From: Bacteroidota bacterium
GTDB taxonomy: Bacteria > Bacteroidota > Bacteroidia > 2-12-FULL-35-15
NCBI GenBank assembly: GCA_025363555.1
Contig: JANYDQ010000157.1
Coordinates: 2,247-66,246 of the forward strand
Reading direction: 5' to 3'
Length of the DNA: 64,000 nucleotides
Positions 1,742 to 35,874 of the stretch are shown here, in pieces (the first letter of the stretch is position 1; each line of letters starts with the position of its first letter). A program made the position numbers and the translations under genes. The notes beneath the pieces were generated by a model. It was not told where the DNA came from, did no database searches, and worked only from the letters and a program-made list of their open reading frames with translations.

Positions 1742-4700
1742 TTACTCCACAACAATTTTTCTGTTCACTGTTCCTTTTTCTGTTTGCAACTGCACAAAAT
1801 AAATTCCTTTTGCTTCCTTACTCAAATCAATTGTAGATTGTAAATTATTAATTTGAGATTGATAAACAACTTCTCCTAAAAGATTTACCACTTTCAGGCT
1901 TTGAACTTTAGACCTTGAACTATAAACCTGGAACTTTCCTGATGAAGGATTAGGATAAATACTAATTCCATCTTCCTCTTTATAATCTGCTACTCCTACA
2001 TTATGTGCAAGTGTATTCAAAGTGGCATTGGTTCTGACAGGAGCATTGAAATCAAAATAAATATCAGCAGTGTTTTTTATTTGTGTCAAATCAGGAAGAT
2101 TTGGTTTCAAATGTATAGTATATATTATTTCACCAACACTTGTAGGAAAAGAATACGGCAGGTTGATATTATTAAACATAAATTTAACTACTCCTGTTTC
2201 ACTTACTTCGGTGGTGAAAGCATGATTAGAATATACCGGATGAAGCGTAGCCAGGTTCAAATCACTGTCTAGTGTATCAATCAGGAATATATTCTGGGCA
2301 TTGTAATTTCCCGTATTTTGAAAGTGAATGGTATAGGTAAGTACTGAATCATTTTGAGAAATAAACCCTGCTTCTCCATCTCCTTTAGGCGAAACTTCTT
2401 TCACGTTAGGGTCCCATGAACCAACCACACTGGGATAATACGCAACAAGATTGTTCCATGGTGTATAATCTGTCAACCAGTTGGTCATTGGCGCTAAATA
2501 TACAGAAGTATCGTTATATTGAAGAGAAGTGCCTATGGGAATATTAGTTGGTACATTGTATTGAACAAAAAAATTTTGAGTACTTGCAGGTGTTAATGTA
2601 GGAAATCCGTTAATAATGCTGTACCAATCGGGGGCAAGAAGAGCATTTTGTTGAGTAAACAAACCAGATGATAAAGATGTTAATTGCAATTGTCCATCAC
2701 TTTTATAACCAAGCTGCACTGCCGATTCGGCAATAGTACCTTCATTTTTCACAATAATATTTTGCTGATAAGGATAACCGGGAACAGGCGGTGTTGGTAA
2801 ATAGGTATGGTAAATACTTATATCGTGAAGTGGATTAATTACATTGGCAATGTTATTCGTAATCACACAACCTGAACTTGCTATGGCAGATATGGAGATG
2901 GAATTGTTTTGACAAGCTGCCAGCGGATAATAATTTCCAACTATTTCGGAAAGGTTGTAATTTCCTGTTGGAGCAATAAAAGAGTAATTTCCATTTGCAT
3001 CGGTATAAGTATAACCTATTCCGGCAAGGTGTATCATTATGTTTTCTATTCCTGTTTCTCCTAAATCCAATGTACAGTTTGTATTTACATCATCGTACAC
3101 TGTTCCTGAAACGGTACAGTAACAGGAGTTATTACCGGCATTGTAGCTAACATAACAATTACTTGTTTGTGCGCAGCCAGCAGCATCGTGAACTGTTACC
3201 CAATAAGCTCCCGTTAAAAGCCCGGTGGCTGTGGCAGCGGTTGCTCCATTGCTCCAGTTATATGTATAAGGAGGAGTGCCCCCAATGGCGGTTACAGCAG
3301 CTATTCCATCGTTTGCAAAAATACAGCTTGCCGGAGTGGTACTGAAATTAAGCGATATGGGTGAAGAGGAATAGACACCTGTTTGTTTGGAAATGGAACA
3401 ACCCATATTATCGGTAATGGTACAGTTATAACTTCCCGGAACAAGACCTGAAATGGAAGCAGTGGTGGCTAATGTATTCCATGCATAAGTATAGGGTGGA
3501 GTGCCTGCGGTGATATTTATTCCTGCCATTCCATTTGGCTGCTGACATAAGGCATCGGTTTTATAAATAGTTCCGGTTATCACACTTACAGGAGGCACAT
3601 AGGTATTTCCTGTTCTTGCACACCCCGCTGCATCGGTTACATTAAAATAATAAAACCCGGGAGATAAACCGGTTGCGGTTATTCCTGTTTGAGCAGGGAA
3701 AGTATTCCACGTAATGGTGTATGGCAACGTACCACCGGCAGGTGTTAATGTGGCAGTGCCTGTTGGTGCGGTACACAAACTGGAAGTGGTGGTATAGGTT
3801 ACTGTTATGGGTGTGGTAATATTTAAATACGAATAGGAAGGATAACTGATGCAACCATTGGCATCAGTAACCGTTACAGTATAATACTGACCTCCCGAAA
3901 GATTGGAAATGGTTTGAGTGGTTTGTCCGTTGTCCCATAAATAAGAATAAGGCGGAACACCGCCTCCGCCAAAAGCAATAATGCTGCCATTGGTGGACAG
4001 GCAGGTGGCAGGAGTAACAACAGGATTAGCAGTAATGTTTATACTTTGGGACACATAGGTATATTGTGTAAAATAACATCCTTGTGCATCGGTTACTGTT
4101 AAACTATATTGCCCCATCGACAAACCGGATATGGATGAAGACGTAGCACCATTGCTCCAAAGGTAAGAATAAGGTGCAATTCCACCTGTTGGTGCTGTAG
4201 CCGTGGCAGTTCCATTGGTACAATTTGCAGGAGTTGAAGAAACTGTAAAATTAATGGGTGACTGGTAACCAACATAAATATTGAGACTATCATCAATTGA
4301 ACTGTAAGCACATCCATTAGCATCGGTTATCCAAACGGAATATTGTCCTCCCGGAACATTTGCGGGATTTCCTGCAGCGATAACGTTTGTCCCATAAGGG
4401 TCTTCCCACAGAACGGTATATGGAGGAGCCCCTCCAGCAATAACTGCTGTTGCTGTGCCTAATGCAGGACATATTGCAGGTGTTGTGTTTATGCTATATG
4501 TAAATGGAGGCTGACCAGCGAAGGAGTTAGATACACTATTAGCTCCACTGGAAGCAGTTATACCAACCATGCAACCACTATAACCAAATAAGGTGTCATT
4601 AACAGTATTTGAAGTATGAGAGAAGTATTGAGACCCTGCCGAAATCATAAAACTAATTGGTGGTGTTAGTCCGGTTGTGTGTATTTCAAGTATTCCATTA

Positions 4701-9655: not shown

Positions 9656-12600
9656 TTAATTCTTTATAAATCGTTTCACACTCGAATGGTTTCCATCTTT
9701 AACATTGAGCAAATAAATACCACTTGTAAATTCTCCGACAGGAATGGTAGCGGAAGCACTTTTGCAAATCATTGTTTTTACCAAACTACCCATTACATCA
9801 TAAATATTAATAGTATAGTTTTTTAAAGAAGATGTATAGTTGATGGTAATATTGTCGGATGCAGGGTTTGGATAAATGTTGAATTCCCCATTTTCCATTG
9901 CCAATTGGTTAGTTGCACTTGTTACAATCGAACGTGTAAAGGTATTAACAGAAGTATTGGTAGATACGGGTGGATTAAAATCGAAATAAATGGATGCTTT
10001 ATTTAGTATTCTTGTGCCTCCTAATAAATTTGCAATAGGTTTTATGCGATATTGGACAAAACCCTGCGACCCTGCAAAGTCGGTAGTGCTGTCGGGAAGA
10101 TTGATATTATGAAAATTAAAAGTAAGCAATCTTCCGGTAAGCGAAACCACATTGGCATGGCTATAATTTATTAATTGAAAAGTGGATAAATCAAGTTTTG
10201 CATCCAGGGTATCCAACAGGCGGATGTTCATAGCAGGTGCAGTTCCGGTGTTTTGAAAATGTACGGTGTAGGTAAAATAGTCCTGCGACCTTTCAGGCAC
10301 CTGTTCAGGATAGGTTTCTTTTAAATTAGGGTCGTACGAATTATGAACATAATAACAATAATTATAATTGTTGTTGGTGCTGTCGTTATCGCCACTTGCG
10401 GGAGATACCTGAACATTGATACAAATCACATCCCCGTTTTGAGCAAACGGATTGGTGGTAAATTGTAATCCAAAATCGGTTGTATTGTTGATGTTATCAA
10501 AATTAGAAACAGGATAAGTATATACATTATTTACTATTGTTGGAGTTAATGCTCCCGAAGCAATACCATTGTAAATAACAGGTCCCGTAACCGTTACTTT
10601 TACCTGTCCGCTCACTCCGGCTGCACAGTGCATGTGGTACCAGTGACTCATATCACCAGCTACTATCCGCACTTCATGGGCTTGTCCGGGAAAAATCAGT
10701 CCGTAAGTTACTACAGATTGAGTACCTGCATCAAACCCCGGTTTACATATTATATCAAAGTTTACATCCTGTACCAGTGAGTTGGCAGAGGTTAAAACTA
10801 CTGTTGAATCCACCCCCGGATTAGCACATTGATAGGTATAAGGCACATCGGCAGTATCAATTTTTACTGTGTACGTCCCGGTAGTATCCGGGAAATCGTA
10901 GATGCCGTTTATAGCAGTATAGGTTTGGCTCAATAAATTATTTCCACTGTCGTAACATTTCAAAGGCACATTTATATAAATATGGTCGGTCGAATCTTTC
11001 ACACAATTGGAAAGACTGTCTTTATAAACAAAGCCAAGAATACCCGAAGCACTTGCACATCCGCTTACATTGCCTGCACCGCAAAGAGGGGTGGCAAGCA
11101 TAGCCCATGTCATTGCCGGAATATAATTTGGGAAACAGGTAAATGGATTATTTGAAATATTAAAATGGCTGCTATCGGCAATTGAAAAAGGAAAAACCGG
11201 GAAGCACGAAATACTATTATTATCACACCATAAATAGCTTAATCCATTAGGCAATGTTGGAAGCCCTGTTAACTGGTCTGTTTCGCAATTTAATTCGGAT
11301 AAACCAGCAGGTAATGATGGCAGTGTAATTAAAGGATTGTTGCTGCAATATAGTTTTGATAATGAAGAGGACATTACAGAAAATGACGTTATTTGATTAT
11401 TGCTGCACCATAATTCAGAAAGCGAATTATTCATTGCCGGAAACGTTGCAATTAAATTATTAGTGCAGGATAAATAATTTAGCGAAGCCGGAAATGCCGG
11501 AAATGTAGTAAGTTGATTATTGTTGCATGATAAATAACTCAACGATGAATTAAACGAAGGGAAAGAAGTAATTGCATTATTGTCACAATATATGGTGGCA
11601 AGCGAAGTTCCCAATGCAGGCAATGTTGGCAATTGATTGTTCCGGCATGACAATGTACCAAGCGAATTGGGCAATGCAGGCAGACTTGGTAAAATATTGT
11701 TGTCACAATTCAAATCAGTAAGTGCATTTGGCAAAGCCGGAAGAGTTGGTAAATAATTTGCAGAACAATTTAAAAAATTGAGTGATGCAGGGAGTGCCGG
11801 AAGAATTGTTAAAGAATCATTACTACACGTTAAAGCGGAAAGAGAATTGTCTAATGCTGGAAGAGTACCTAATGGATTATTACTGCAATTTAAAGTAACA
11901 AGCGAATTGGGTAAAGCTGGCAAACTATCTAAGTAATTAGTTGAACAATCTAAATAATTAAGTGCAGTATCTAATGCGGGAAGTACAGGTAATTGATTGC
12001 TGTAACATCTTAAATCTGTTAACCCATTGGGCAAAGCAGGAAGTGATGTTAATTGGTTGCTACTGCAATTTAATATTAAAAGGGCACTGTCCAGTGGGGG
12101 AAGACTTGGTAATAGGTTATTATAACAAATCAAAGTTGTAAGTGAAGAATCTAAAGACACAATGGAAGTCAATTGATTTTGATAACAATTCAGAAATTTG
12201 ACCGAACCGGGTAAAGCAGGAATAATTGTAATATTATTCCGGTCGCACATTAATGTATCAAGCGAAAGGGGTAAAACAGGGAGACTGGTTAAATGATTAA
12301 ATTCACAACTGATAAAGGTAAGAGAATTGGGTAAAGGAGGAAGACTTACCAATTGATTGCTGTCGCAGGAAAAATAAGTTAAAGAACCGGGTAATGCCGG
12401 AATAGTGTGAATTAAATTATAGCCGCAATACAAATGAATAAGGTGAGTAAAATAGTTTATTCCTGTTAAATCAGAAATGGAATCGCGGGTTACATCAATA
12501 TCTGTAACAGTTGATAATGACGAACAGGTGGTGTCTAATTGATTTCCTGTGATACAAATCGGATAATGGGTTTGCAACCACAAAACAAAATGAGCATCGG

Positions 12601-12673
12601 GAATAGTAACCAATTGTGGTTTTGCAATTATACTTATCAGTAAAAGTGCAATTAATGTAATTGTTTTTTTCAT
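9656..12673 (-). CDS. Leucine-rich-repeat T9SS cargo protein (~25 x 22-aa LRRs)
   Basis: Signal peptide MKKTITLIALLLISIIAKPQ. Repeats of L.xL.C.xN.L.SLP.LP.S with 66-bp DNA periodicity across 11.3-12.4 kb. The C-terminal sorting domain is ~80% identical to that of the 7849-9618 gene. Confidence 0.8.
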   Translation of the reverse strand: MKKTITLIALLLISIIAKPQLVTIPDAHFVLWLQTHYPICITGNQLDTTCSSLSTVTDIDVTRDSISDLTGINYFTHLIHLYCGYNLIHTIPALPGSLTYFSCDSNQLVSLPPLPNSLTFISCEFNHLTSLPVLPLSLDTLMCDRNNITIIPALPGSVKFLNCYQNQLTSIVSLDSSLTTLICYNNLLPSLPPLDSALLILNCSSNQLTSLPALPNGLTDLRCYSNQLPVLPALDTALNYLDCSTNYLDSLPALPNSLVTLNCSNNPLGTLPALDNSLSALTCSNDSLTILPALPASLNFLNCSANYLPTLPALPNALTDLNCDNNILPSLPALPNSLGTLSCRNNQLPTLPALGTSLATIYCDNNAITSFPSFNSSLSYLSCNNNQLTTFPAFPASLNYLSCTNNLIATFPAMNNSLSELWCSNNQITSFSVMSSSLSKLYCSNNPLITLPSLPAGLSELNCETDQLTGLPTLPNGLSYLWCDNNSISCFPVFPFSIADSSHFNISNNPFTCFPNYIPAMTWAMLATPLCGAGNVSGCASASGILGFVYKDSLSNCVKDSTDHIYINVPLKCYDSGNNLLSQTYTAINGIYDFPDTTGTYTVKIDTADVPYTYQCANPGVDSTVVLTSANSLVQDVNFDIICKPGFDAGTQSVVTYGLIFPGQAHEVRIVAGDMSHWYHMHCAAGVSGQVKVTVTGPVIYNGIASGALTPTIVNNVYTYPVSNFDNINNTTDFGLQFTTNPFAQNGDVICINVQVSPASGDNDSTNNNYNYCYYVHNSYDPNLKETYPEQVPERSQDYFTYTVHFQNTGTAPAMNIRLLDTLDAKLDLSTFQLINYSHANVVSLTGRLLTFNFHNINLPDSTTDFAGSQGFVQYRIKPIANLLGGTRILNKASIYFDFNPPVSTNTSVNTFTRSIVTSATNQLAMENGEFNIYPNPASDNITINYTSSLKNYTINIYDVMGSLVKTMICKSASATIPVGEFTSGIYLLNVKDGNHSSVKRFIKN

Positions 12674-16042: not shown

Positions 16043-16078
16043 CCCGCTATGGTATTTACTACCATAGCGGGAATTTTT
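16043..16078. terminator. Strong bidirectional rho-independent terminator
   Basis: CCCGCTATGGTA-TTTAC-TACCATAGCGGG is a perfect 12-bp stem, flanked by an A7 run and TTTTT. Confidence 0.8.
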
Positions 16079-16094
16079 AATAATGAACGACTAT

Positions 16095-16778
16095 TTACAT
16101 AATCATTACATTATACACCACGCTCCAGGCACCGAATTCGCCCACAGCGTTGCCCCAGCATAAGCGGAAAGACAGAATTTGCCCTGTATTTTCTTCCGCG
16201 AAGCTCATTTTGCCGTTGAACCTGGTAAAATTACCAAGAAAAGCAAATTTAAGCACACTGGGTGCCGGCTGTCCGAAAGGAACAACTATGCCGAACACCT
16301 GGTAACTTTTTACCCCGGCAGGTTTCTTTCTGCTGCTGGGCGAGTTTTCATCGCGCACATCCAACCCGATAAACAAATGCTGGTTGTTTTTTGCATTTGC
16401 ATTAACCGGTGTACTTGTTGGCTTCACCGCTTTGGTACGTGCCGAAGGAACGTTTACGCCAAGCGTTACACGGTTTCCGTCCGTCAAATTCACATTTTTG
16501 TTGATGTGATTTGCTGCAAAAAGCCGTAAACTCTTTTCGTAAGTACCTCTCGCAAGGTTCTTGTTTTTAACTTGAGTAGCCGATCTGCTACCCTTTACTG
16601 CTTTACTTCCCACTGCATAAGCATTCACCCATGTAGTTTGTTCGGTTAGTAAACCCGTTAAGTCGGCAGGTACAAGACCTAACGCAACTAACATAGTGGC
16701 TACTTCTGTCATAAAGTTCGACTGCCATCCGTCAAAGCTTTCGTCCGTTTCCGGAATGTAATTATTGGCTGTTGCCAT
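16095..16778 (-). CDS. Hypothetical protein with no signal peptide and no recognised domain
   Basis: 227-aa ORF with good coding look, terminator downstream and a palindrome upstream. No family recognised. Confidence 0.55.
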   Translation of the reverse strand: MATANNYIPETDESFDGWQSNFMTEVATMLVALGLVPADLTGLLTEQTTWVNAYAVGSKAVKGSRSATQVKNKNLARGTYEKSLRLFAANHINKNVNLTDGNRVTLGVNVPSARTKAVKPTSTPVNANAKNNQHLFIGLDVRDENSPSSRKKPAGVKSYQVFGIVVPFGQPAPSVLKFAFLGNFTRFNGKMSFAEENTGQILSFRLCWGNAVGEFGAWSVVYNVMIM

Positions 16779-16806
16779 ACTTTTTTCAAAAGGGATTTTT
16801 TATAAA

Positions 16807-16824
16807 AGCTATATCATTATAGCT
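16807..16824. promoter_or_regulatory. Palindrome AGCTATA-tcat-TATAGCT about 30 bp upstream of the 16095-16778 gene
   Basis: 7-bp perfect inverted arms with a 4-bp centre inside an AT-rich divergent region. Confidence 0.35.
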
Positions 16825-17117
16825 ATTTAGTCCCTCTACTTATAAGACGTGCATAATACATAAAAGGTTGCATGAATCCTATATATTTTTTAATTTATTT
16901 TAATAATAATTTTAATTCACTGTATTCCAATTACATAAATCACATATTTATTTATTCAAATGTTAAAATTTGCCTTGTTTTAGATATTTTTTAAAAAATA
17001 TAAATAATAATAAAAGCTTTTTTTTGATTTTATTTCCATTCATTATCCCCTGGTGCCCGAACCCAACAATCTTTAAATAAATGATAAGTAATGTAATGTG
17101 CTTATTTCGTAAGGCAT

Positions 17118-17306
17118 GCAAAAGTTTCCCATAGCAAAGGGAAAGTTTCCCATAGCAAAGGGAAAGTTTCCCATAACAAAGGGAAAGTTTTACTTAGCAA
17201 AGGGAAAGTTTTACTTAGCAAAGGGAAAGTTTCCCATAACAAATGGAAAGTTTCCCATAACAAAGGGAAGGTTTCCCATAACAAAGGGAAAGTCTCGGGT
17301 ACTAAA
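17118..17306. repeat. Tandem array of ~8.5 copies of a 21-bp unit GGGAAAGTTTCCCATA(A/G)CAAA containing the palindrome GGGAAAnTTTCCC
   Basis: Copies start at 17139, 17160, 17181, 17202, 17223, 17244 and 17265 (each 21 bp), with a degenerate copy at 17286. Copies 3-4 are the variant GGGAAAGTTTTACTTAGCAAA. The array lies in a 720-bp divergent intergenic region. Confidence 0.9.
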
Positions 17307-17492
17307 GGGTATATTTGCCTTTTGTCACGTTTGGGAGTTTGGTTTGCTTCTTTAATTTATTATTAATTAATATTTTTAACAGCCCGCTCTAAAAAGAAAA
17401 ATTTAAAGTCCCCTAATTTCTAAGATGCTAAAAAAACAACATTTTTAATTGGGCGGAATTTTTAGTTTGTGTTTTTAATCGAAATTTATTTT

Positions 17493-17500
17493 TACCTTTG
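17493..17500 (+). promoter_or_regulatory. Bacteroidota-type -7 box TACCTTTG (TAnnTTTG) abutting the start of the HYC_CC_PP-like gene
   Basis: Exact match to the TAnnTTTG consensus. The start codons GTG/ATG/ATG lie at 17500-17508, implying a leaderless or near-leaderless transcript. Confidence 0.45.
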
Positions 17501-17901
17501 TGATGATGAAGAAAATAGTTTCTGTATTTCTTGCTTTTATATTTGGCTTATCTGCTATGGGTATGGAGGTAACTATGCACCATTGCAAGGGTGAAACTTC
17601 TTATATTGTATTTGGAATTGATTTTAATAAGCATTGTAAATGCAAACACGAAAACAGAAAACACAATAAAAACTGTTGTGATAGAAAAAGTATTTTCGTA
17701 AAAACGGTTGGAGACAGTTTCTCCAATACAACTAAGGTAGTTTCGTTCAATAAAATTTGTTTGAATCCATTTTTAGTTTCTGAAGGTTTTTTAACAAAAT
17801 TTTGTAGTTATAAAAATTACAATTCTGCTTCTTACATTTCTAAAGTCCCTCCTGACAGGGGCATTCCTCTTAATACGCTCAACTGCGTTTCCCGAATATA
17901 A
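17500..17901 (+). CDS. Small secreted Cys/His-rich protein, HYC_CC_PP-like (motifs MHHC, CC, PP)
   Basis: Signal peptide MMMKKIVSVFLAFIFGLSAMG, then 'MHHCKGE', 'KNCCDRK' and 'VPPDRG'. The true start may be the ATG at 17503 or 17506. Confidence 0.6.
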   Translation: MMMKKIVSVFLAFIFGLSAMGMEVTMHHCKGETSYIVFGIDFNKHCKCKHENRKHNKNCCDRKSIFVKTVGDSFSNTTKVVSFNKICLNPFLVSEGFLTKFCSYKNYNSASYISKVPPDRGIPLNTLNCVSRI

Positions 17902-21846: not shown

Positions 21847-22407
21847 ATGAAAAAAATAATCATTTTAATGGGTGTAATAATAATTACAACATTAAGCGCA
21901 AATGCACAAAAAAAACACGAACATAAAAGTAAGGCAGAAACAAGTGTTGTGCCGGTGTTTGATAAACCAAATGCAGATGTACAAACACAAATTAATAATT
22001 TACTAATAGTGTATTATAAAATGAAAGATGCCCTTGTTGCAGACAAAGATGCAGATGCAATGGCTGCTGCTAAAGAATTTAGGAAAGCACTTGAAAAGGT
22101 GGATATGAATAAAATGACGAGCGCGGAACATACTTACTATATGGATTTGCAAACCAAACTGGATTATGATGCGGAGCATATAAGCGGAGCGCCAAACATT
22201 GAGCATATCAGGGAGCATTTTGAAACCCTCTCTGTTAATATGTTTGCTCTTGTGAAAGCATTTAAAGCGAATGACGGAAAGGCGGTTTACTATGATTATT
22301 GCCCGATGAAAAAGGCAAGCTGGATAAGCAATGGGGAGGAAATAAAAAATCCATACTATGGTAAAAAGATGATGGACTGCGGGAGTGTGAAGGATAGTAT
22401 AAAATAA
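21847..22407 (+). CDS. DUF3347-like secreted protein (C-terminal 'YYDYCPMKKASWIS...KNPYYG..M..CG')
   Basis: Start taken at the MKKIIILMGVIIITTLSANAQ signal peptide (the ORF track starts earlier, at 21790). The C-terminal CPM motif and His-rich N-terminus match DUF3347 as recalled. Confidence 0.65.
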   Translation: MKKIIILMGVIIITTLSANAQKKHEHKSKAETSVVPVFDKPNADVQTQINNLLIVYYKMKDALVADKDADAMAAAKEFRKALEKVDMNKMTSAEHTYYMDLQTKLDYDAEHISGAPNIEHIREHFETLSVNMFALVKAFKANDGKAVYYDYCPMKKASWISNGEEIKNPYYGKKMMDCGSVKDSIK

Positions 22408-22634
22408 ATTTAATTGAAAGGTATTGACATAATAAAAACGTGTGAATAATGGAAGTTGTTTTATAAGTTGTGTAACTTTTAATGCTTTAAAAATATTGAC
22501 TTTTGTATTCAGTGAAAAGTAAGGTGTCTTACTGGAAAACAGAAATATGATAAATATCATAGTATGAATTGACAGAAATCATATTTTATGATTGGAAAAC
22601 AAATAATTTTGTGATGAAATTTTAATTTAATAAT

Positions 22635-22667
22635 CGGGCGACAGAGAAACTGAAGAACGGGTGACAG
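22635..22667. promoter_or_regulatory. Direct repeat CGGGCGACAG / CGGGTGACAG (23 bp apart) about 35 bp upstream of the Met-rich gene
   Basis: GC-rich 10-mers in an otherwise AT-rich intergenic region. The spacing is about two helical turns. Confidence 0.35.
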
Positions 22668-22700
22668 CGTTACTGAAAAAAAATAAAAATAATAATTATT

Positions 22701-23051
22701 ATGAAAAACAAAAAATCAATTTCAGCAATTTTAGCTACAATGCTAATGCTGGTAGTATGCTTTACAGCAAGTAATTCTTTTGCACAAACGAAAACTGCAC
22801 CTGCAACAATGAAAGATTGTTGTATGATGAAGGACGGAAAAATGATGCAAATGAAAGATGGAAAAATGATGCCGATGGACAAAGAAATGACAATGAAAAA
22901 TGGAACGAAGTGTATGGTTAATGGTGAATGTATTATGAAAGACGGAAAAAAAATGAAGATGAAAGAAGGTGATTGTATGGATATGGATGGCAAAATGGAC
23001 AAATGTTCAATGATGAACAAAGACGCTAAAGGTTCAACAGAAAAGAAATAG
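22701..23051 (+). CDS. Secreted methionine-rich repeat protein (MKDGKMM repeats plus Cys), putative Cu(I)-binding periplasmic protein
   Basis: Signal peptide MKNKKSISAILATMLMLVVCFTASNSFAQ. The mature region of ~85 aa has more than 20 Met arranged in MxM/MM motifs and 6 Cys. An internal DNA repeat is present. Confidence 0.65.
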   Translation: MKNKKSISAILATMLMLVVCFTASNSFAQTKTAPATMKDCCMMKDGKMMQMKDGKMMPMDKEMTMKNGTKCMVNGECIMKDGKKMKMKEGDCMDMDGKMDKCSMMNKDAKGSTEKK

Positions 23052-23113
23052 CGAAAGTAAGAGTATAATAAGGATTCTGTAATTTTATTGAAAGTTGCAG
23101 AATCCTTTTATCT

Positions 23114-23602
23114 TTGAATAAAATGAAAACAAAATCTAAAAGTATCTTCATTGCATCAACGCCTGAAAAAGTGTTTCAGCAGATGGATGATTTTTCTAAA
23201 ACCGGAATGCATATGACTGAAAGTTCGATGATGATGGGAAGTAAATTGAAGTTGGAACAACTTTCTGCGAATGCAAGCGGTGTAGGTCCTAAATACAGGT
23301 GGTATGGTAAAATGATGGGTATGGTAATGGATTTCAGCGAAACGGTTATGAAGTGGCAACCTCCTGTAATTAAGGAATGGGAGATAGTGGGGGAGGCAAA
23401 AATTATTATAATGTCGTGGTACAGGATGTGGTTTGAAATTTCTCCTGATGAAAATGGAACGGTTGCAAAAATTTCTATCAGTTATTTGCCTCCAAAGGAA
23501 TGGTATTATAAAATTCTTTCTTTCTTTTTTGCAAACTGGTATTGTAACTGGTGTTTGAATAATATGCTAAGTGATACAAAAAGTGCACTGGAAAATAAAT
23601 GA
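23114..23602 (+). CDS. SRPBCC (START/Bet v 1-like) domain protein, hypothetical
   Basis: 162 aa with no signal peptide. Its stop overlaps the next gene's start (ATGA at 23599-23602). Confidence 0.45.
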   Translation: MNKMKTKSKSIFIASTPEKVFQQMDDFSKTGMHMTESSMMMGSKLKLEQLSANASGVGPKYRWYGKMMGMVMDFSETVMKWQPPVIKEWEIVGEAKIIIMSWYRMWFEISPDENGTVAKISISYLPPKEWYYKILSFFFANWYCNWCLNNMLSDTKSALENK

Positions 23603-26346
23603 TAAGCAGAATTCGGCAAATGCAATTTTATAGCCAACCTATTGATTCCATTATTGAGTACTTTAAAAGTGATTCCAAGGAAGGGCTTTCTTATCAGGAC
23701 ATTGAATTTAACAGAAAAAAGTGGGGAAATAATGTCTTAAAGGAATCAAATAAAAGGAGTATTTGGGTAACTCTGTACGGGCAATTTACTGATTTGCTTG
23801 TTGTCATTTTCATTTGCGCGGGGGTGCTCGATTTCTATTTGGGACAAACCAGGGATGGTACTGTGTTAATTGCTATTGTTGTTTCTAATGCATTGATTGG
23901 GTTTTACCAGGAACTGAAAGCAGAAAATATTCTTGCATCGTTGAAAAAATTAGTTGTTGAAAAATGTAAAGTTTTAAGAGATGGAAAAACAGTTGAAATA
24001 TTGGTTGAAGATATTGTGGCGGGAGATGTAGTGAAATTATTTGAAGGGGATGGTGTTCCTGCGGATATTCGCCTTATTAAGTCAAATGGATTTTCAGCTA
24101 ATGAATTTATTCTAACTGGCGAATCGTTGCCTTCTGAAAAGGATTATGATTTTATTACTGATAAAACACTTCCTGTTTCGGAAATTAAGAATTGTGCATT
24201 TATGGGAACTACTGTTGCAAGAGGTGAAGCAACTGGAATTGTGTATGCAACGGGAATGCAAACGGAAATAGGCAAGATAAGTGCCACTTCAAAGAAAATT
24301 AAAACAGATTTAACTCCTGTGCAGGTTGAAGCGGCAGATGTAGCAAAAAAAGTAATGTGGGGTACGATAATAATTGCTGTTCCGCTTTTCGCAACACGAA
24401 TGATTTTGCACGATTCGATATTAGTAGCAGTTATTTTTACTATTGGTGTTGCCGCGGCAATGGTACCAGAAGGACTTCCTGCCCAAATATCAACCGCATT
24501 GGCATTAGGTGTGAGACGACTTGCGAAAAATAATGCGATTGTAAAAAGAATCTCGGCAGTAGAAACACTTGGTTCTGCAACAGTAATAGCTTCGGACAAA
24601 ACAGGAACAATTACAAGAAACGAAATGACGATAACCAATTGTTATTTTAATGGCAGTGAATATAGTGTTTCGGGGCTTGGATATGCTCCTTTCGGAGAGA
24701 TTGTATCAAAGGATAGGAGGCATCTTAATAAATCTGATATAGAAGAAGTGAAAGTCTTTTTTCTTTCAGGTTATCTTTCTTCAACGGGAAAAATTAATCC
24801 GCCTGACAAATACCACCCAACCTGGCATTGCATTGGAGACCCTACCGAATCATCGTTTGCAACACTTGCTATGAAAGCTGGTTTTACTTTGGAGGAAATT
24901 AATAATGAATATTCGATTGTTAAATCATTTGGATTTGATTCAATAAGAAAAAGGGCTTCAATTATCAGGAAACATAATGGCAAAACTATATCTTTTGTAA
25001 AAGGAGCAATTGAATCAATACTTGATGTATGTGATAAAATAATAATTAATGGTGAAATAAATGTGTTGGGCGAAGCAGAAAAAAAACAATTGCTTTCTAA
25101 TTCTACAGCGTACGCAATGAATTCGTTGCGAATAATTGCACTTGCTCATAAAGAACTTCAGGAAAAAGAATTTAATATTGATGATGCTGAACGTAACTTA
25201 ACTTTTGCTGGTTTTGTAACAATGCTCGACCCGCCTCACGAGGAGGTGAAAAGTGCAATAGAATCTGTATTCAAAGCACATATAAAAGTGTTTATGATTA
25301 CAGGTGATAATGAAATTACCGCCAATGCTATTGCTAAAAACATAGGGTTAATGAATGAGAACAATGAGTTTCCGAAAGTGATTAATAGTACATCATTAGC
25401 CGCAATGAGTGATGAACATTTAAAAGAAGTTTTCAAAAAAAGGGCGGTTGTATTTTCAAGAGTATCGCCTGATGATAAATTCAGGATAGTAGATTTATTG
25501 AAAAAGCAAGGTGAAATAGTTGCAGTAACTGGTGACGGTGTAAATGATACACTGAGTTTAAAGAGAGCAGACATTGGTGTGGCAATGGGTTTGAACGGCT
25601 CTAAAGTTGCGCAGGAAGCCGCCACCATAATTTTATTGGATGATAATTTCTCCACCATCGCACTTGCGGTTAAAGAAGGAAGAATTATTTTCAGGAATAT
25701 TGAAAAGACAGTAATAACAAATTTATCTTCTAATATTGCGGAGTTGATTTGCGTACTTGCAGGATTTGTCGGGGCTTTTTTCGGTATTGCCACCCCATTG
25801 TTAGTAATACAGATATTGGCAATGGATATGCTCGGTGAAATGTTTCCGCTGATGATGCTGACTTACGACCCGCCTGAAGAAACAATTATGGAAGACGCAC
25901 CGAGAAACCCAAAAGATAAAATACTTTCTAAGCAAGTGCTGAAAGGAATTATAGTAAGGGGTGCAGTGATGGGCTTTGCGGCTTATGGAGCGTTCCTTGC
26001 AGAATATTTTCATAATCATCATTTATCTAATCATTATGAAAAGGCCACCACTGTAACTTATGTTTCAATTCTTTTTGGACAAATTGCAAATATTCTTTCA
26101 AGAAGAACAAAAGGAAGTGTGTGGAGTAAATATTTATTTTCCAATCTTTATTTATGGGGTGCAATAGCATTGTCAATGGTTTTTATGTTGTTGATAGTTT
26201 ATGTTCCATTTTTGAATTTGTATTTTCATACCTCCTCATTATATTTGGTGGATTGGTTATTTCCAATCGCAGTATTTACGATATGTTTAATATCGTATGA
26301 ATATATGAAGAAATTTAATAGCAAGAAAAAAATAACATTGTTATAA
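23599..26346 (+). CDS. P-type cation-transporting ATPase, P2-type (Ca2+/Mg2+ family; PEGLPA motif, no CPx)
   Basis: DKTGTIT phosphorylation site, TGDGVNDTLSLKRADIGVAMG, the N-terminal 'Cation_ATPase_N'-like region, and 'MVPEGLPA' in TM4. Confidence 0.85.
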   Translation: MISRIRQMQFYSQPIDSIIEYFKSDSKEGLSYQDIEFNRKKWGNNVLKESNKRSIWVTLYGQFTDLLVVIFICAGVLDFYLGQTRDGTVLIAIVVSNALIGFYQELKAENILASLKKLVVEKCKVLRDGKTVEILVEDIVAGDVVKLFEGDGVPADIRLIKSNGFSANEFILTGESLPSEKDYDFITDKTLPVSEIKNCAFMGTTVARGEATGIVYATGMQTEIGKISATSKKIKTDLTPVQVEAADVAKKVMWGTIIIAVPLFATRMILHDSILVAVIFTIGVAAAMVPEGLPAQISTALALGVRRLAKNNAIVKRISAVETLGSATVIASDKTGTITRNEMTITNCYFNGSEYSVSGLGYAPFGEIVSKDRRHLNKSDIEEVKVFFLSGYLSSTGKINPPDKYHPTWHCIGDPTESSFATLAMKAGFTLEEINNEYSIVKSFGFDSIRKRASIIRKHNGKTISFVKGAIESILDVCDKIIINGEINVLGEAEKKQLLSNSTAYAMNSLRIIALAHKELQEKEFNIDDAERNLTFAGFVTMLDPPHEEVKSAIESVFKAHIKVFMITGDNEITANAIAKNIGLMNENNEFPKVINSTSLAAMSDEHLKEVFKKRAVVFSRVSPDDKFRIVDLLKKQGEIVAVTGDGVNDTLSLKRADIGVAMGLNGSKVAQEAATIILLDDNFSTIALAVKEGRIIFRNIEKTVITNLSSNIAELICVLAGFVGAFFGIATPLLVIQILAMDMLGEMFPLMMLTYDPPEETIMEDAPRNPKDKILSKQVLKGIIVRGAVMGFAAYGAFLAEYFHNHHLSNHYEKATTVTYVSILFGQIANILSRRTKGSVWSKYLFSNLYLWGAIALSMVFMLLIVYVPFLNLYFHTSSLYLVDWLFPIAVFTICLISYEYMKKFNSKKKITLL

Positions 26347-26358
26347 AGAAAAACAAAA

Positions 26359-27636
26359 ATGGTAAAGAAACTAATCGAAATAGCATTACGTAACAGGTTT
26401 ATAGTACTTGTGGTAGCGGCAGGATTGTTCGGATGGGGTATTTATAGTGTAAAAAATAATCCTGTAGATGCTATTCCTGACTTGTCGGAAAATCAGGTTA
26501 TCGTATTTACTGAATGGATGGGTCGCAGTCCGCAGATAATTGAAGACCAAATAACTTATCCGCTTGTAAGTAATTTGCAGGGGATTCCAAAAATAAAAAA
26601 TATACGAGGTACATCAATGTTCGGGATGAGCTTTGTATATGTAATTTTTGAAGATAATGTTGATATATATTGGGCAAGGACTCGCGTAACTGAACGGTTG
26701 AACTTTGCTCAACGGTTGTTGCCGCAAGGTGTTGTACCTTCACTGGGACCTGATGGAACCGGAGTAGGTCACGTTTTTTGGTACACACTGGATGCACCAA
26801 AAATGGATTTGGGCGAACAACGTGCTTTGCAGGATTGGTACATTAAGTTCGGCTTGCAAACTGTAAACGGTGTTGCGGAAGTTGCATCATTCGGTGGTTT
26901 TGAAAAACAGTACCAATTGGTTATTGACCCTTTGAAATTGCAATATTATAAATTATCAATGATGGATGTGATGCACGCTGTGCAGGATAATAATAATGAT
27001 GTAGGCGGAAGAAAATTTGAGATGAGCGATATGGCTTATATTATACGTGGACTTGGTTATATAAAAACAAAAGAAGATTTGGAAGGGATTGCGGTGATTA
27101 ATAATAATGGCATTCCAGTAAGAGTAAAAGATATTGCATCTGTGCAAATGGGTGGTGATTTGAGACTTGGTATTTTTGATGAAAATGGCGGGGGAGAAAA
27201 AGTAGGTGGAATAGTGGTTATGCGGTATGGAGAAAATGCAGACAGGGTAATAAATGCAGTAAAGGAAAAGATGAAAGATTTAGTAAAGGGACTACCGGAG
27301 GGGGTGAAATTCCATACTGCTTATGACAGGAGCAAATTGATTGAAGAAGCAATCGGTTCGGTAAAAGAAACATTGATTGAAGTATTAATTACAGTTTCAT
27401 TAGTAGTGATAATATTTCTATTTCATTGGCGAAGCGCATTAATAATTTTGATTCAACTGCCAATATCTGTAGCGGTAAGTTTTATTTTCCTTCAGGCATT
27501 CGGACTTTCATCTAATATAATGTCGTTAACAGGTATAGCACTGGCAATAGGTGTGGTGGTAGATGATGGTATAGTAATGGTGGAAAATGCGTATCGGCAT
27601 CTATCTGAAGAACAATTAAAAAGAAAGGAAAAATGA
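26359..27636 (+). CDS. CusA/CzcA-family heavy-metal RND efflux pump, N-terminal portion (TM1, periplasmic loop 1, TM2-4) of a split gene
   Basis: 'MVKKLIEIALRNRFIVLVVAAGLFGWGIYS' and '...VVVDDGIVMVENAYRHL' are CusA hallmarks. The ORF ends with an ATGA overlap into the next ORF. Confidence 0.8.
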   Translation: MVKKLIEIALRNRFIVLVVAAGLFGWGIYSVKNNPVDAIPDLSENQVIVFTEWMGRSPQIIEDQITYPLVSNLQGIPKIKNIRGTSMFGMSFVYVIFEDNVDIYWARTRVTERLNFAQRLLPQGVVPSLGPDGTGVGHVFWYTLDAPKMDLGEQRALQDWYIKFGLQTVNGVAEVASFGGFEKQYQLVIDPLKLQYYKLSMMDVMHAVQDNNNDVGGRKFEMSDMAYIIRGLGYIKTKEDLEGIAVINNNGIPVRVKDIASVQMGGDLRLGIFDENGGGEKVGGIVVMRYGENADRVINAVKEKMKDLVKGLPEGVKFHTAYDRSKLIEEAIGSVKETLIEVLITVSLVVIIFLFHWRSALIILIQLPISVAVSFIFLQAFGLSSNIMSLTGIALAIGVVVDDGIVMVENAYRHLSEEQLKRKEK

Positions 27637-29549
27637 GTAATTGGTTTAAAAGAAAACCCGACCTTCTTTCTTCCGAAGAAAGACTAACAATAATTGAAAA
27701 GGCAGCGAAACAAGTTGGCCCGGGAGTGTTTTTTTCAAATATTGTTGTAATAATATCTTTTTTACCTGTTTTCTTACTTACGGGGATGGAAGGGAAATTA
27801 TTCAGTCCTTTGGCGTGGACAAAAACATTTATTCTGTTGGTTGATGCGTTTCTTGCTGTTACTCTTGCTCCTGTTTTGATTTCATTTTTTCTGAAAGGTA
27901 ATTTGAAACCCGAAGGAGCAAACCCAATAGTAAGGGGGTTGGAAAAAGTTTATAAACCTGTTCTGAAATTATGTTTGAACTGGAGAAAGACAACTATTGT
28001 TGTAAATATAATTGCTCTCGTGTTTGCTATCTTTATATTTTCACGATTGGGGTCTGAATTTATGCCACCGCTTGATGAAGGCTCTATTTTATTTATGCCT
28101 GTAACATTACCTGATATTTCAAACTCAGAAGCAAAAAGGCTTTTGCAAGTGCAGGATAAAATTATTAAATCTCTACCCGAAGTTGAAAATGTTTTGGGTA
28201 AGGCAGGGAGAGCGAACACCGCTACTGACAATTCACCCATAAGTATGATTGAAACTGTAATACTTTTGAAACCAAAAACTGAATGGCGAAAAGGTTTTAC
28301 AAAAGACAGCATTATTAATGAATTAAATACTAAGCTTCAAATTCCCGGAATAACAAACGGGTGGACACAACCGATTATTAACCGTATTAATATGCTTTCG
28401 ACAGGAATAAGGACTGATGTAGGAGTTAAAGTTTATGGACAAAACCTTGATACTATATTTTCTTTTTCACAAAAGCTTAAAAAAAGTATAGAAGATATTG
28501 CGGGCATCCAGGATTTATATGTAGAGCCTATTACAGGAGGAAGGTATATTGATATTGTAATTAAAAGAGAAGAAATTGGACGTTACGGGCTTACGGTAAA
28601 TGATGTTAATTCAGTTATAGAAACTGCATTGGGTGGAATGAAACTGACTACTACGATTGAAGGCAGGCAGCGGTTTTCAATTAATGCGCGTTATGGGGAG
28701 GACTTTAGAAACAACCTGACTGCATTAAATCAACTACAAGTTCAGACTATGAATTACGGCCCCATTCCACTCTCTGCTGTTGCGGATATTAAATTATGGG
28801 AAGGACCGCCAATGATAAATTCGGAAAATGCTTTATTGAGAGGAACAATATTATTTAATGTAAGAGGAAGAGATTTAGGCAGCACTGTAACTGAGGCACA
28901 GAAAAAATTAAGTATGATGATTAATAAAATGCCAAAAGGATATTTTATAGAATGGAGTGGGCAATGGGAAAACCAGTTAAGGGCAAATAAAACATTAAAA
29001 CTTATTATGCCTGTTGTTCTTATTTTTATATTCTTTGTTCTCTATTTCACTTATCATTCGGCTAAAGAAGCTATTCTTACAATGATAACTGTTCCATTTG
29101 GATTGATAGGAGGGGTTGTAATGGTTTATTTGTATGACATAAATCTTTCTGTTGCAGTTGCTGTTGGTTTTATTGCTTTATTTGGTATGGCTGTGGAGCT
29201 TGCTATGTTGATGACCATATATCTTAATGAAGCGATGCAAAAATTGGTAAACGATAAAGGAAATTCCAGAGAAACTATATCTACTGATGATTTAAGAGAG
29301 TATATAATAATTGGTGCAACTAAAAGGCTTCGCCCTGTTATTATGACTGTTTCGGTTTCCTTGTTTGGTCTAATTCCTATTTTGTGGGCAACAGGAGTTG
29401 GGAGCGATGTAATGCGCCCGATTACAATTCCTCTTTTGGGAGGGACTATTAGTACAATAGTATTTGTAATGTTCGTAACACCAATAGTACTTGAAATGAC
29501 AAAGGAAAGGGAACTAAAACGCAATGGTAAAATCACTTTAATAGAATGA
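27633..29549 (+). CDS. CusA/CzcA-family heavy-metal RND efflux pump, C-terminal portion (TM5-12, periplasmic loop 2)
   Basis: Continues the CusA alignment ('IIEKAAKQVGPGVFFSNIVVIISFLPVFLLTGMEGKLF'). The two ORFs sum to 1063 aa, about one full CusA. Confidence 0.8.
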   Translation: MSNWFKRKPDLLSSEERLTIIEKAAKQVGPGVFFSNIVVIISFLPVFLLTGMEGKLFSPLAWTKTFILLVDAFLAVTLAPVLISFFLKGNLKPEGANPIVRGLEKVYKPVLKLCLNWRKTTIVVNIIALVFAIFIFSRLGSEFMPPLDEGSILFMPVTLPDISNSEAKRLLQVQDKIIKSLPEVENVLGKAGRANTATDNSPISMIETVILLKPKTEWRKGFTKDSIINELNTKLQIPGITNGWTQPIINRINMLSTGIRTDVGVKVYGQNLDTIFSFSQKLKKSIEDIAGIQDLYVEPITGGRYIDIVIKREEIGRYGLTVNDVNSVIETALGGMKLTTTIEGRQRFSINARYGEDFRNNLTALNQLQVQTMNYGPIPLSAVADIKLWEGPPMINSENALLRGTILFNVRGRDLGSTVTEAQKKLSMMINKMPKGYFIEWSGQWENQLRANKTLKLIMPVVLIFIFFVLYFTYHSAKEAILTMITVPFGLIGGVVMVYLYDINLSVAVAVGFIALFGMAVELAMLMTIYLNEAMQKLVNDKGNSRETISTDDLREYIIIGATKRLRPVIMTVSVSLFGLIPILWATGVGSDVMRPITIPLLGGTISTIVFVMFVTPIVLEMTKERELKRNGKITLIE

Positions 29550-30808
29550 GGAAAACAATATTGACATTTGTATTTGTATTTGTATTCTCTTTATTTTATG
29601 TCAAGGCGCAACGAATGAATATTGATTCTATTCTTTCTGCCATTGACAAACAACATCCTTCAGTAAAAATGTTTGATGCAGATATTGCATCTATGAACGC
29701 TGCTGCCAAAGGAGCGCGAAGCTGGATGCCTCCCGAAGTGGGAGCGGGTTTCTGGATGACACCCTATAACCCGATGATGTGGAAAGCGGATGCAGAAAAT
29801 AATTACAGTGGTATGGGGTCGTTTATGGTTTCGGCTCAACAAATGTTTCCAAATAGAAAACAACAGGATGCTAATTCTGCTTATATGAGTGCAATGTCGT
29901 CAGTGGAAGTGCAAAATAAAAATACTACGCTGAATGATTTATATGCAGAGGCAAGGAAAAATTATTTTGAGTGGGTGGTGTTGAAAAAGAAATCAGCAAT
30001 TATAGAACAGGATTCTGTATTGCTTACCTATATGATTGCTGATGCGGAATTGCGGTTTAAAAATAATATGGAAAAACTTAGTGCTTATTATAAAGCAAAA
30101 GCAGCACTTGGTAATTTGCAAAATATGAAACTGATGGTGCTGAATGAAATGAAGCAAAAACAAATTGCATTAAATACTTTGATGAATAGAAAGGTTACTA
30201 CTTCATTTGATATTGATAGTACTTATCATTTAAAAGATTATTCTGTTTATCATTTTGACAGTACTTTGTTTTCAACAAACCGAACTGATATTATTGCGAT
30301 AGACAAAAATATTACTCTTAACCAACTTCACCTGAAACTGGAGAAAGCGAATTTAAAGCCACAGTTCGGGGTGCGTTATGATAATATGTTTGCGTTTGGG
30401 ACACAGCCTTACCAGTTCTCTTTAATGGGAATGGTGAAAATTCCTATTGCTCCCTGGTCGTCAAAAATGAGCAAAGCAACTATTGAAAGTTTGAAATTAA
30501 AAAATGAGGCATTGCAAAGTGAAAAACAAATGATGATTAATGAATCGAATGGTATGGCAAGTTCGATGTTGAATATGATTGAAACAAAAAAGAAACAAAT
30601 TAAATTATATGAAACTAATATTATTCCTGCTTTAAAAAACAATTACAAAACTATGGAGTTGGGTTATGAGCAAAATACAGAAGAGTTGTTTATGTTGTAT
30701 GATGCGTGGGAATCATTAAATATGACACAACTTGATTATTTAGACCAGTTGCAACAATTATTAACAATGCAAACAGAACTGGATAAAATTCTCCAATTGA
30801 AAAAATGA
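29546..30808 (+). CDS. TolC-family outer membrane efflux protein (CusC-like)
   Basis: Signal peptide present. 420 aa with coiled-coil heptads typical of the outer membrane efflux protein family. Both ends have ATGA overlaps with neighbouring genes. Confidence 0.75.
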   Translation: MRKTILTFVFVFVFSLFYVKAQRMNIDSILSAIDKQHPSVKMFDADIASMNAAAKGARSWMPPEVGAGFWMTPYNPMMWKADAENNYSGMGSFMVSAQQMFPNRKQQDANSAYMSAMSSVEVQNKNTTLNDLYAEARKNYFEWVVLKKKSAIIEQDSVLLTYMIADAELRFKNNMEKLSAYYKAKAALGNLQNMKLMVLNEMKQKQIALNTLMNRKVTTSFDIDSTYHLKDYSVYHFDSTLFSTNRTDIIAIDKNITLNQLHLKLEKANLKPQFGVRYDNMFAFGTQPYQFSLMGMVKIPIAPWSSKMSKATIESLKLKNEALQSEKQMMINESNGMASSMLNMIETKKKQIKLYETNIIPALKNNYKTMELGYEQNTEELFMLYDAWESLNMTQLDYLDQLQQLLTMQTELDKILQLKK

Positions 30809-32052: not shown

Positions 32053-32055
32053 AAA

Positions 32056-33240: not shown

Positions 33241-33265
33241 ATTATTTGAAAGATTAAAATTAAAA

Positions 33266-35284: not shown

Positions 35285-35330
35285 ATCTCCAAAGGAGGAA
35301 ATAGTTTTTTCTTATTAAATAAAAAATAAT

Positions 35331-35338
35331 TACCTTTG
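35331..35338 (+). promoter_or_regulatory. -7 box TACCTTTG abutting the second HYC_CC_PP-like gene
   Basis: Same octamer as at 17493-17500. A probable GTG start lies at 35348. Confidence 0.4.
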
Positions 35339-35758
35339 TTGCGTAAAGTGAAAATTAAAAAGATCATATCAAAAAACATTAGCTGCTTATTACTTGTTGT
35401 AATGACATATATGCACATTTGTTCTGCTTTTTGTGCAACGGGAGTCGATTTTTGTTGCAGCGAAGGTGATGAAGGCAACAATTGTGAAAAATCCTGTTCC
35501 GCACAAGAAGAAAAATCTGCCAACCCAAAACCTGACTGCCAGGACCTTCATTTTTCATTTTTCAATGCAACCGGACAATACGCATTTGCAAAAAGTATTG
35601 ATACTGTAAAAGTGTTTTTTACAATTGTTCAAATTGTAACTCCTATATTAAATATACTTCCCGTTTCGCATAGAGAAGATATTTTTGCTTTTAATGGTTT
35701 TCATCCCCCACCCCCAAAATCCGATATAAGAATTTTTATCAATAGTTTCCTGATTTGA
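35336..35758 (+). CDS. Small Cys-rich protein, HYC_CC_PP-like (MHIC, CC, PPPP)
   Basis: 'LLLVVMTYMHICSAFC...DFCCSE...GFHPPPPKSD' is a paralog of the 17500 gene. The ORF-track start is TTG at 35336. The start is more likely GTG at 35348 (MKIKKIISKN...). Confidence 0.45.
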   Translation: MLRKVKIKKIISKNISCLLLVVMTYMHICSAFCATGVDFCCSEGDEGNNCEKSCSAQEEKSANPKPDCQDLHFSFFNATGQYAFAKSIDTVKVFFTIVQIVTPILNILPVSHREDIFAFNGFHPPPPKSDIRIFINSFLI

Positions 35759-35779
35759 TTTTTTTAATATTTTAATTCA

Positions 35780-35804
35780 CACGGCAGAATATTTTCTGAC
35801 CGTG
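35780..35804 (+). terminator. Weak hairpin downstream of the HYC_CC_PP-like gene
   Basis: CACGGCAG...CTGACCGTG imperfect inverted repeat with a T-run 8 nt later. Confidence 0.3.
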
Positions 35805-35874
35805 CAGGACTTTTTATTGTCAATTCAATAAAAATAAATAAAAATAAATTCTTATTATAAAATTAAATCAAACA

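Follow-up and report, generated by a model that had tools for sequence, protein, structure and literature searches.

The stretch analysed here comprises 64,000 nucleotides (nt) of contig JANYDQ010000157.1 from a Bacteroidota bacterium (assembly GCA_025363555.1), and the whole of it is called the window below. It carries an array of 21-bp tandem repeats in the 720-bp intergenic region between a gene for a hypothetical protein of 227 amino acids (aa) and a divergent gene of the HYC_CC_PP type, which leads a metal island. Comparison of related loci led us to reassign the array to the family of the 227-aa protein and identified an upstream array with this period as a trait of that whole family, and this is our main result. 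The features of the region, including two open reading frames (ORFs) over the repeats, are as follows:

16043..16071, minus strand: strong terminator-like hairpin, 12 pairs and then a T-run, just downstream of the 227-aa gene
16095-16778, minus strand: 227-aa gene, left of the array and divergent
16779..17117, no strand: AT-rich spacer from the family-gene start to the proximal array edge, 337 bp to ATG 17116
17102..17284, minus strand: 60-aa ORF (ETFPLLW)n, oriented like the family gene, mechanical
17116..17355, plus strand: 79-aa ORF (K-G-K-F-P-I-A/T)n over the array, probably mechanical, the only frame with any comparative coding support
17118..17306, no strand: tandem array of nine in-register 21-bp units, head to tail, no indels
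17139..17235, no strand: stretch with three perfect 13-bp palindromes GGGAAAGTTTCCC (17139-17151, 17160-17172 and 17223-17235)
17181..17222, no strand: variant unit pair, two adjacent and identical units at 17181 and 17202, GGGAAAGTTTTACTTAGCAAA
17310..17317, plus strand: TATATTTG, perfect match to the Bacteroidota -7 promoter motif TAnnTTTG, 4 bp past the last unit, toward the HYC_CC_PP gene
17503-17901, plus strand: HYC_CC_PP/DUF8199 gene (start 17500/17503; NCBIfam NF047658, E 1e-9)

The two flanking genes agree with those named in the preliminary description of this DNA.

Structure and strain variation of the array

Tandem Repeats Finder (TRF) reports a single array at 17121-17293 (period 21, 8.2 copies, 91% matches, 0% indels, score 262), the only one with a score above 100 in the whole window, which confirms the exactly phased and nearly perfect 21-bp array claimed before. 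The consensus unit is GGGAAAGTTTCCCATA(A/G)CAAA on the plus strand and TTTG(C/T)TATGGGAAACTTTCCC in the orientation of the 227-aa gene, and the local identity of the array at lag 21 reaches 0.91. The units lie 340-528 bp upstream of the gene at 16095-16778, in an intergenic region (16779-17499) with a GC content of 28% compared with 36.7% for the window. The adjacent units at 17181 and 17202 carry the same variant, GTTTTACTTAG, lack the right arm of the palindrome and mark a local duplication of recent date. The final unit (17286) is degenerate, as are the edge units of the array in general, and both the identical variant pair and the degenerate terminal copy of the preliminary description were thus recovered.

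A palindrome had been reported for every unit. We found GGGAAAGTTTCCC to be perfect in only three units (17139, 17160 and 17223), with one mismatch in two more and without its right arm in the variants; an alternative 6-N8-6 inverted repeat, TTTCCC-N8-GGGAAA, also occurs within 17139..17235. At two mismatches or fewer the motif has 14 matches against 1.5 expected, all but one of them inside the array, and the chance of a palindrome with 6-bp arms in a random 21-mer tandem unit is about 2.7%. The palindrome decays in strain variants and is missing from most of the related arrays, and its standing as the key feature is not supported.

The array is also present in contigs of near-identical strains from three other samples or assemblies (L031/L032, L033 and L034). 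These contigs encode identical flanking proteins, enter the array from either side and break inside it, and because they too run into the repeats, the array does not stem from an error of one particular assembly, which had been named as a possible objection. The copy number in the window rests on one assembly and the comparison contigs are short-read assemblies that end within the array; in the overlapping part, L033 has one unit more than the window and different unit variants, and it holds a diverged second copy of the variant unit, GTTCTACTTAAC. The strain contigs differ in unit order and in single-base changes which disrupt the palindrome, for example TTTCCG and GGGAAGGATTCC. The near-identical units in the window genome reflect a recent expansion or gene conversion, which would also make the copy number unstable between strains. 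The earlier proposal of a slippage-prone contingency locus thus keeps some plausibility as far as instability is concerned, given the extra unit of L033 and the variants in order and sequence. Classic switching is not supported, because copy changes of 21 bp leave the helical phase (and the reading frame) intact and the array does not lie within any -33/-7 promoter spacer.

A second repeat with a period of 21 bp (AACTATCTAAATAATTAAGTG, 2.5 copies) was observed at 11923-11974, in the 5' part of the ORF for a leucine-rich repeat protein of the type IX secretion system (T9SS) at 9656-12673; its sequence is unrelated to the main array.

Linkage of the array to the gene family

The 227-aa protein belongs to a large unnamed family of about 220 aa, with 1189 cluster representatives at E<=1e-3 and more than a thousand clusters at 50% identity. 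It has no match in Pfam, NCBIfam, PHROG or PADLOC, and a membership check did not place it in any defence system. The fold predicted by AlphaFold2 (predicted local distance difference test score of 94) consists of an N-terminal helical bundle, of a generic kind, and a C-terminal FN3-like sandwich, for which the model gave FN3 matches. Single-protein viral scans were empty, and tblastn of four members against plasmids and phages returned zero matches. A word-index search for homologues of the gene gave only two matches, one of them without DNA, and alignment-based retrieval of family loci found no stretch conserved enough.

A period of 21 bp corresponds to seven codons, and coding was therefore tested directly (see below); one such test was a protein search with the 79-aa ORF that spans the array. 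The single match, P0007, is itself an ORF over an array with a 21-bp period in L043, a contig of high GC content. The units of L043 (e.g. GCAAAGGGAAAGTTCCCGATG) equal the window unit at 17 of 21 positions, and its array lies 336 bp upstream of a divergent gene for a 220-aa protein, the corresponding distance in the window being 337 bp. The 227-aa and 220-aa proteins are homologous over their full length, with 23% identity (E 6e-14). Additional members were found in L045/L046 (P0008, 40% identical to the window protein, in low-GC DNA with a chromosomal, Bacteroidota-like context), in L047 (P0012, 58% GC) and in L049 (P0018, 47% GC), so that the comparison covers five family loci with DNA (window, L043, L046, L047 and L049), at 23-40% protein identity and 37-65% GC.

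All five have an array within about 550 bp upstream of the family gene, with units visible by eye. The arrays of L046, L047 and L049 are degenerate, with 11-16 units and an exact 21-bp period, and end 30-100 bp before the start codon. Eight or more units follow one another at exactly 21 bp and without indels in every locus, the register being kept over 8-16 degenerate units, and the conserved columns of the unit fall in contiguous blocks. In the two Bacteroidota-type loci the array is upstream of the likely promoter region. Analysis of the 720 bp upstream of the gene gave lag 21 as the top autocorrelation, above every shuffle, at five of the five loci. The mononucleotide shuffle is a lenient null, as codon periodicity makes one lag or another "significant" in 32 of 139 upstream regions; the relevant background is given by the other upstream regions of the same sequences, about 4 of 133 of which (~3%) have a top lag of 21, 42 or 63.

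Traces of the same arrangement were also detected among the proteins. A screen of 151 family proteins found nine with N-terminal extensions of at least 28 aa, and six of these extensions show a periodicity of 7 or 14 residues, for example (QLIRALG)x7 in P0095 and (NAKLVGT)x5 in P0133. The six members (P0095, P0104, P0116, P0133, P0144 and P0154) come from public protein sets, and their extensions are likely to be in-frame read-through of an upstream array from miscalled start codons.

Unit profiles were compared over all cyclic shifts and in both orientations. The window and L043 are the one pair found to have a unit motif in common, oriented alike with respect to the gene (a score attained by 0 of 300 shuffles), and the similarity of units in all other pairs of loci is at chance level. 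The spacer between gene and array has matching lengths in the window and L043 and is not conserved in sequence. A short common element, TGTGC(T/G)T(A/T)ATT(T)CG, was noticed on the gene-proximal side of both arrays (window 17097-17112, L043 about 3277-3290), the rest of the spacer being unrelated. Taken together, these comparisons show that the linkage of gene and array holds across distant lineages, with a conserved period and without a conserved unit sequence.

These data bear on the view that the array is a neutral minisatellite, or variable number tandem repeat (VNTR), which arose by slippage and unequal recombination in an AT-rich spacer and affects expression by its length only. Such an origin would be in line with the near-identical units and the identical adjacent pair, with the degenerate edge units, with the differences in unit content among strains (including the extra unit in L033), with palindromic units, which favour slippage, and with the lack of any match to the exact unit in 185,579 species-representative genomes. 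Neutrality fails, however, to explain arrays at five of five DNA loci and in six further members against a background of about 3%. The degenerate arrays keep their register without indels, and the units of the window and of the high-GC contig L043, oriented alike, agree at 17 of 21 positions, both of which also argue against it. We consider a neutral VNTR to be quite unlikely.

The array is associated with the family of the 227-aa gene and not with the metal island on its other side. The preliminary description had implied a link with the HYC_CC_PP gene and its island, in which case the array could be an operator or enhancer of a copper/heavy-metal island, bound by a dimeric metal-responsive regulator. 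The position of the array 4 bp upstream of a perfect -7 box facing the island, the palindromic unit and the large copper/heavy-metal efflux cluster downstream would all suit this role. The orthologues of HYC_CC_PP speak against it, since no array was found upstream of five orthologous loci (L039, 66% identity; L036/L040, 64%; L037, L041 and L042, 44%), and these genes are mostly within operons, behind short spacers. The orthologues have instead a conserved promoter-like box that adjoins the ATG, TAC(C/A)TTT(G/A), resembling a -7 element and placed 5-6 nt before the start codon, which suggests that the mRNA has a very short leader or none; it was located at 17493-17500 in the window, at about 3521-3528 in L036 and at about 55-62 in L037 (orthologues of 64% and 44% identity). 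In addition, no regulator gene was found within the island, no further copy of the palindrome motif occurs in the 64 kb outside the array, the other promoters of the island included, and no member of the 227-aa family is encoded in the HYC_CC_PP loci or in the loci retrieved by the palindrome pattern (see below). A metal-responsive operator is thus very improbable, and the implied link is not upheld.

Possible function of the array and its genomic setting

Our preferred reading, held tentatively and with slightly less than even confidence, is that the array is a local, recently homogenised case of a conserved class of non-coding arrays with a 21-bp period that serve the gene of the ~220-aa family. 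The best mechanistic guess is a phased protein-binding platform. The array would act at the DNA level as a platform of multiple sites, with one site per two helical turns and hence all sites on one face of the helix. A sequence-specific, oligomerising factor may load on these sites and set the transcription of the family gene, and the linked family protein is the only consistently co-located candidate for such a factor. The array may also incidentally affect the abutting promoter-like motif on the side of the metal island. This motif, TATATTTG, is identical in the strain contigs and is the sole TAnnTTTG lying wholly inside the 720-bp intergenic region on either strand; its function as a promoter is putative. 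Of the phased protein-binding geometry proposed in the preliminary description, the 21-bp phasing is therefore retained and the platform stays a best guess, and the emphasis on the palindrome is not.

Several observations weigh against a platform of this kind. A DNA-binding fold was sought in the family protein and none was recognisable, nor any other nucleic-acid-binding fold, in the generic bundle and the FN3 domain. The window unit is shared with L043, whose protein is 23% identical, and not with the locus of P0008, which is 40% identical; the unit motif does not follow the protein tree, which is awkward for a cognate co-evolution. Phasing of AT and GC at 10.5 bp was found in only two of the five arrays (window and L043), and intrinsic curvature is therefore no general explanation. 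Three further points would suit a protein-coding repeat: the exact period of 21 in every locus also equals seven codons, the ORFs of the window and L043 both begin with an ATG at the array edge, and the consensus units of these two loci differ at positions 4, 10, 13 and 16 only, all of them synonymous third positions in the plus frame (GGA/GGG, TTT/TTC, CCC/CCG and ATA/ATT; p about 0.01-0.04).

The last three points are shared with the alternative that the array encodes a small, fast-evolving heptad-repeat protein, (KGKFPIA)n with a hydrophobic tail, at 17116-17355 and divergent to the family gene. The retrieval of P0007 by a protein search also favours it: this 86-aa ORF of L043 has its ATG at the same relative position, the two start codons lying 336 bp (L043) and 337 bp (window) from the family gene, and antisense frames are open in four of the five loci. 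Against coding, five of the six unit frames are stop-free by construction, unit-to-unit mismatches are lowest at position 3 of the plus frame (0.39 versus 0.46-0.47), and the six-frame table, over all loci, contains not a single frame that lacks stops and also has a coding-like order of mismatches. The open frames of L047 and L049 are on opposite strands, L049 being open on the other strand only, and L046 has stops in all six frames, with four in the corresponding one. In the near-identical strains the changes within the ORF are one synonymous and four non-synonymous, and the ORF diverges at the same rate as the non-coding DNA around it. Between loci, the C-terminal tails show no relationship and the heptads differ entirely. 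In the minus frame at 17102..17284 the differences between the window and L043 are all non-synonymous. A coding array is unlikely on this evidence; judged from the sequences, the arrays are probably non-coding, and a real micro-gene of the window/L043 type is a doubtful proposition. The ORFs had been dismissed earlier as artefacts of the repeat, which is probably right in view of the mismatch order and the six-frame table, and which is unproven for the plus-strand ORF in view of P0007 and the shared ATG.

An action at the RNA level was also considered, in which the array would be transcribed, as a long repetitive leader of the family gene or as a non-coding RNA belonging to it, with UUUCCC-N8-GGGAAA hairpins that bind a factor or control translation or stability. 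The strong fold (z -6.2), the arrays of L046, L047 and L049 that reach -30 to -100 of the start codon, the 10-11-bp hairpins formed by the units of L047 and the shared orientation of the window and L043 arrays with respect to the gene are consistent with this idea. The fold score, however, is a trivial outcome of repeated palindromes, the units of L046 and L049 have no palindromes, and it is not obvious what a fixed period of 21 nt would mean for an RNA. The window array is 340 nt from the gene, with no minus-strand TAnnTTTG distal to it that could drive a transcript. A search of Rfam 15 gave no hit at gathering score in the window, which also has no tRNA, and only chance-level hits at the permissive threshold of E<=1 in the array regions of the five loci. 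An RNA function appears distinctly improbable.

The preliminary description had also raised an iteron-type or integrative and conjugative element (ICE) origin, and the units could accordingly belong to a plasmid, phage or ICE, integrated or former, as its iterons or its partition centromere. Phased direct repeats beside very AT-rich DNA would be expected there, and L027 has a similar unit next to a gene that resembles replication initiator O. Within +/-15 kb of the array, genes for rep, par, integrase or transfer functions were not found, and housekeeping genes flank the region. DnaA boxes are at chance level in the window and absent from the intergenic region, the GC skew is positive on both sides of the array, and the cumulative skew has no turn; because of this and of the missing DnaA-box cluster, the array is not oriC. 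Searches among 72,556 plasmids and 50,697 phages found nothing similar by DNA or by protein, and the other family loci are chromosomal. The replicon reading is highly improbable. The earlier statement that no described Bacteroidota operator with this consensus was known agrees with the lack of a match to any described operator, and to any RNA family, plasmid or phage in Rfam and in the plasmid and phage records.

Three known categories were examined as candidates and rejected. The repeats do fall in the range of ~17-22 bp in helical phase that characterises an iteron-type origin, and no winged-helix Rep and no replicon context were found. For a partition centromere, no ParA/ParM/ParB/ParR-like genes were found and the linked gene appears monocistronic. 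For a CRISPR, the units are head to tail without spacers and no cas genes were found.

When metagenomes and viral contigs were searched for the palindrome-pair pattern, 30 loci were obtained, and almost all are unrelated two-copy sites in backgrounds of mixed GC content. GGGAAA(N)TTTCCC recurs in pairs, at distances of 6-10 bp, in L003/L008/L021, L004/L013/L016, L018/L019, L007/L009 and L020/L024, which are unrelated and mostly high-GC metagenome contigs; several of these loci are the same element in different samples, and they may represent a widespread type of operator. At 3190-3345 of L027, an AT-rich stretch holds four units of 22 bp (GGGAAAGTTTCCCCATATTACC) and three of 13 bp (TTATCTTAATTGT), about 0.9 kb from the HTH_36 gene that resembles replication initiator O, next to a helix-turn-helix gene of the XRE type. 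The L027 repeats probably represent an iteron origin, that of a small plasmid or phage, and serve here only as an analogy.

The wider locus is chromosomal. To the left of the array all genes are on the minus strand and encode T9SS surface proteins, a fatty-acid desaturase, a MacB/FtsX permease and the 227-aa protein, whose gene appears to be monocistronic because of the terminator hairpin at 16043..16071. The genes to the right all lie on the plus strand, beginning with HYC_CC_PP/DUF8199 and continuing with a cupredoxin-like T9SS protein, DUF3347, an HMBD protein, DUF6799, two P-type ATPases, a split CusA, OEP, two CusB-type proteins and a multicopper oxidase, and beyond this metal island the housekeeping genes purH, mreBCD, PBP2, rodA, lnt, lpdA and hemH. 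The CusA-type transporter of the resistance-nodulation-division type is split into 26359-27636 and 27633-29549, with a 4-nt overlap (ACR_tran profile positions 2-422 and 418-1016); possible causes of the split are a frameshift or pseudogene, a programmed shift and an error of assembly. The core of the island (about 22000-36000) has a lower GC content (0.32-0.36) and a much stronger GC skew (0.15-0.33) than its flanks, a composition consistent with horizontal acquisition. Another small gene framed by short tandem repeats was seen at the left end of the window, where ORF 461-850 (PF05635, E 2e-39; a four-helix-bundle protein of the 23S-rRNA-intervening-sequence or bAvd-like type) is bracketed by tandem repeats at 281-456 and 809-894; these include heptamers (CCTATTG/CCTATTC x6.6 at 404-449 and GCTATTC-type x6.4 at 850-894) and a 34-bp x2 repeat.

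Considered alone, the array would be one more intergenic minisatellite, and it is the comparative result that changes this reading. The data bring into view an undescribed two-part module that would extend from Bacteroidota to Planctomycetota and high-GC lineages, consisting of a cytoplasmic ~220-aa protein and an obligatory array of 8-16 units in which the period is fixed and the sequence is free; we are evenly divided as to whether it exists in this form. If it does, it would amount to a phased nucleoprotein or cis-regulatory system of a new kind, or to heptad micro-genes of a new class, and nothing in Pfam, NCBIfam, Rfam or PADLOC, or in the biology of plasmids and phages, would correspond to it. 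A cis-element with its 21-bp period as the only conserved property would give a testable handle on a large family of hypothetical proteins, and a natural system in which spacing is selected independently of sequence, by helical or by codon phasing. For annotation, an array should not be assigned to the more interesting-looking neighbour, here the metal-resistance island, and heptad-repeat N-terminal extensions in gene calls of the family should be treated as probable read-through artefacts.

Comparison with known repeat systems

Iteron units are typically 17-22 bp long at a spacing of about 22 bp. Initiator-binding repeats are described for iteron plasmids and for Vibrio cholerae chrII (PMC4980987, PMC3401445). 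The array resembles them in its tandem direct repeats at about two helical turns, in the AT-rich neighbouring DNA, in being tied to one gene and in a sequence that is specific to the lineage. It differs in that the linked protein is predicted to be a helical bundle with an FN3 domain and not a winged-helix Rep, in its chromosomal location without DnaA boxes, and in a period that is always 21.

Among type II centromeres, parC of pSK41 consists of 20-bp repeats. In plasmid R1, parC has two sets of five repeats that are bound by ParR (PMC2241845). These centromeres share with our arrays some 8-10 phased repeats immediately upstream of a linked gene, and the model of a nucleoprotein superstructure on one face of the helix. 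In parC the gene of the protein that uses the repeats is linked to them, whereas binding by the linked family protein is here a candidate role only. Unlike parC, the array has no ParM/ParA motor gene and no ribbon-helix-helix protein, and it is not on a plasmid.

LytTR-type sites (AgrA, ComE and PlnC) consist of 9-bp direct repeats with 12-bp spacers, which gives a 21-bp period, and LytTR regulators are common in Bacteroidota. To our knowledge, these sites are pairs and not arrays of 8-16 units. The likeness lies in direct repeats with a 21-bp spacing from centre to centre upstream of promoters, and the difference in the 8-16 units, in the conservation of the whole 21 bp and not just of a 9-mer, and in the lack of a LytTR gene nearby.

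Contingency loci and VNTRs form a class related to promoter-proximal repeat tracts. At the ctxAB promoter, TTTTGAT heptad repeats recruit regulators (bioRxiv 10.1101/2021.05.14.444153). Near-identical tandem units upstream of a promoter are common to these tracts and to the array, whose copy number may likewise vary between strains. In contrast to them, a 21-bp unit keeps the helical phase and the promoter spacing, and the related arrays are degenerate and not slippage-prone. By the tests that define these categories, the array is not an iteron, parC, CRISPR or LytTR element, it partly fits a VNTR, and we class it with the phased tandem-repeat cis-elements.

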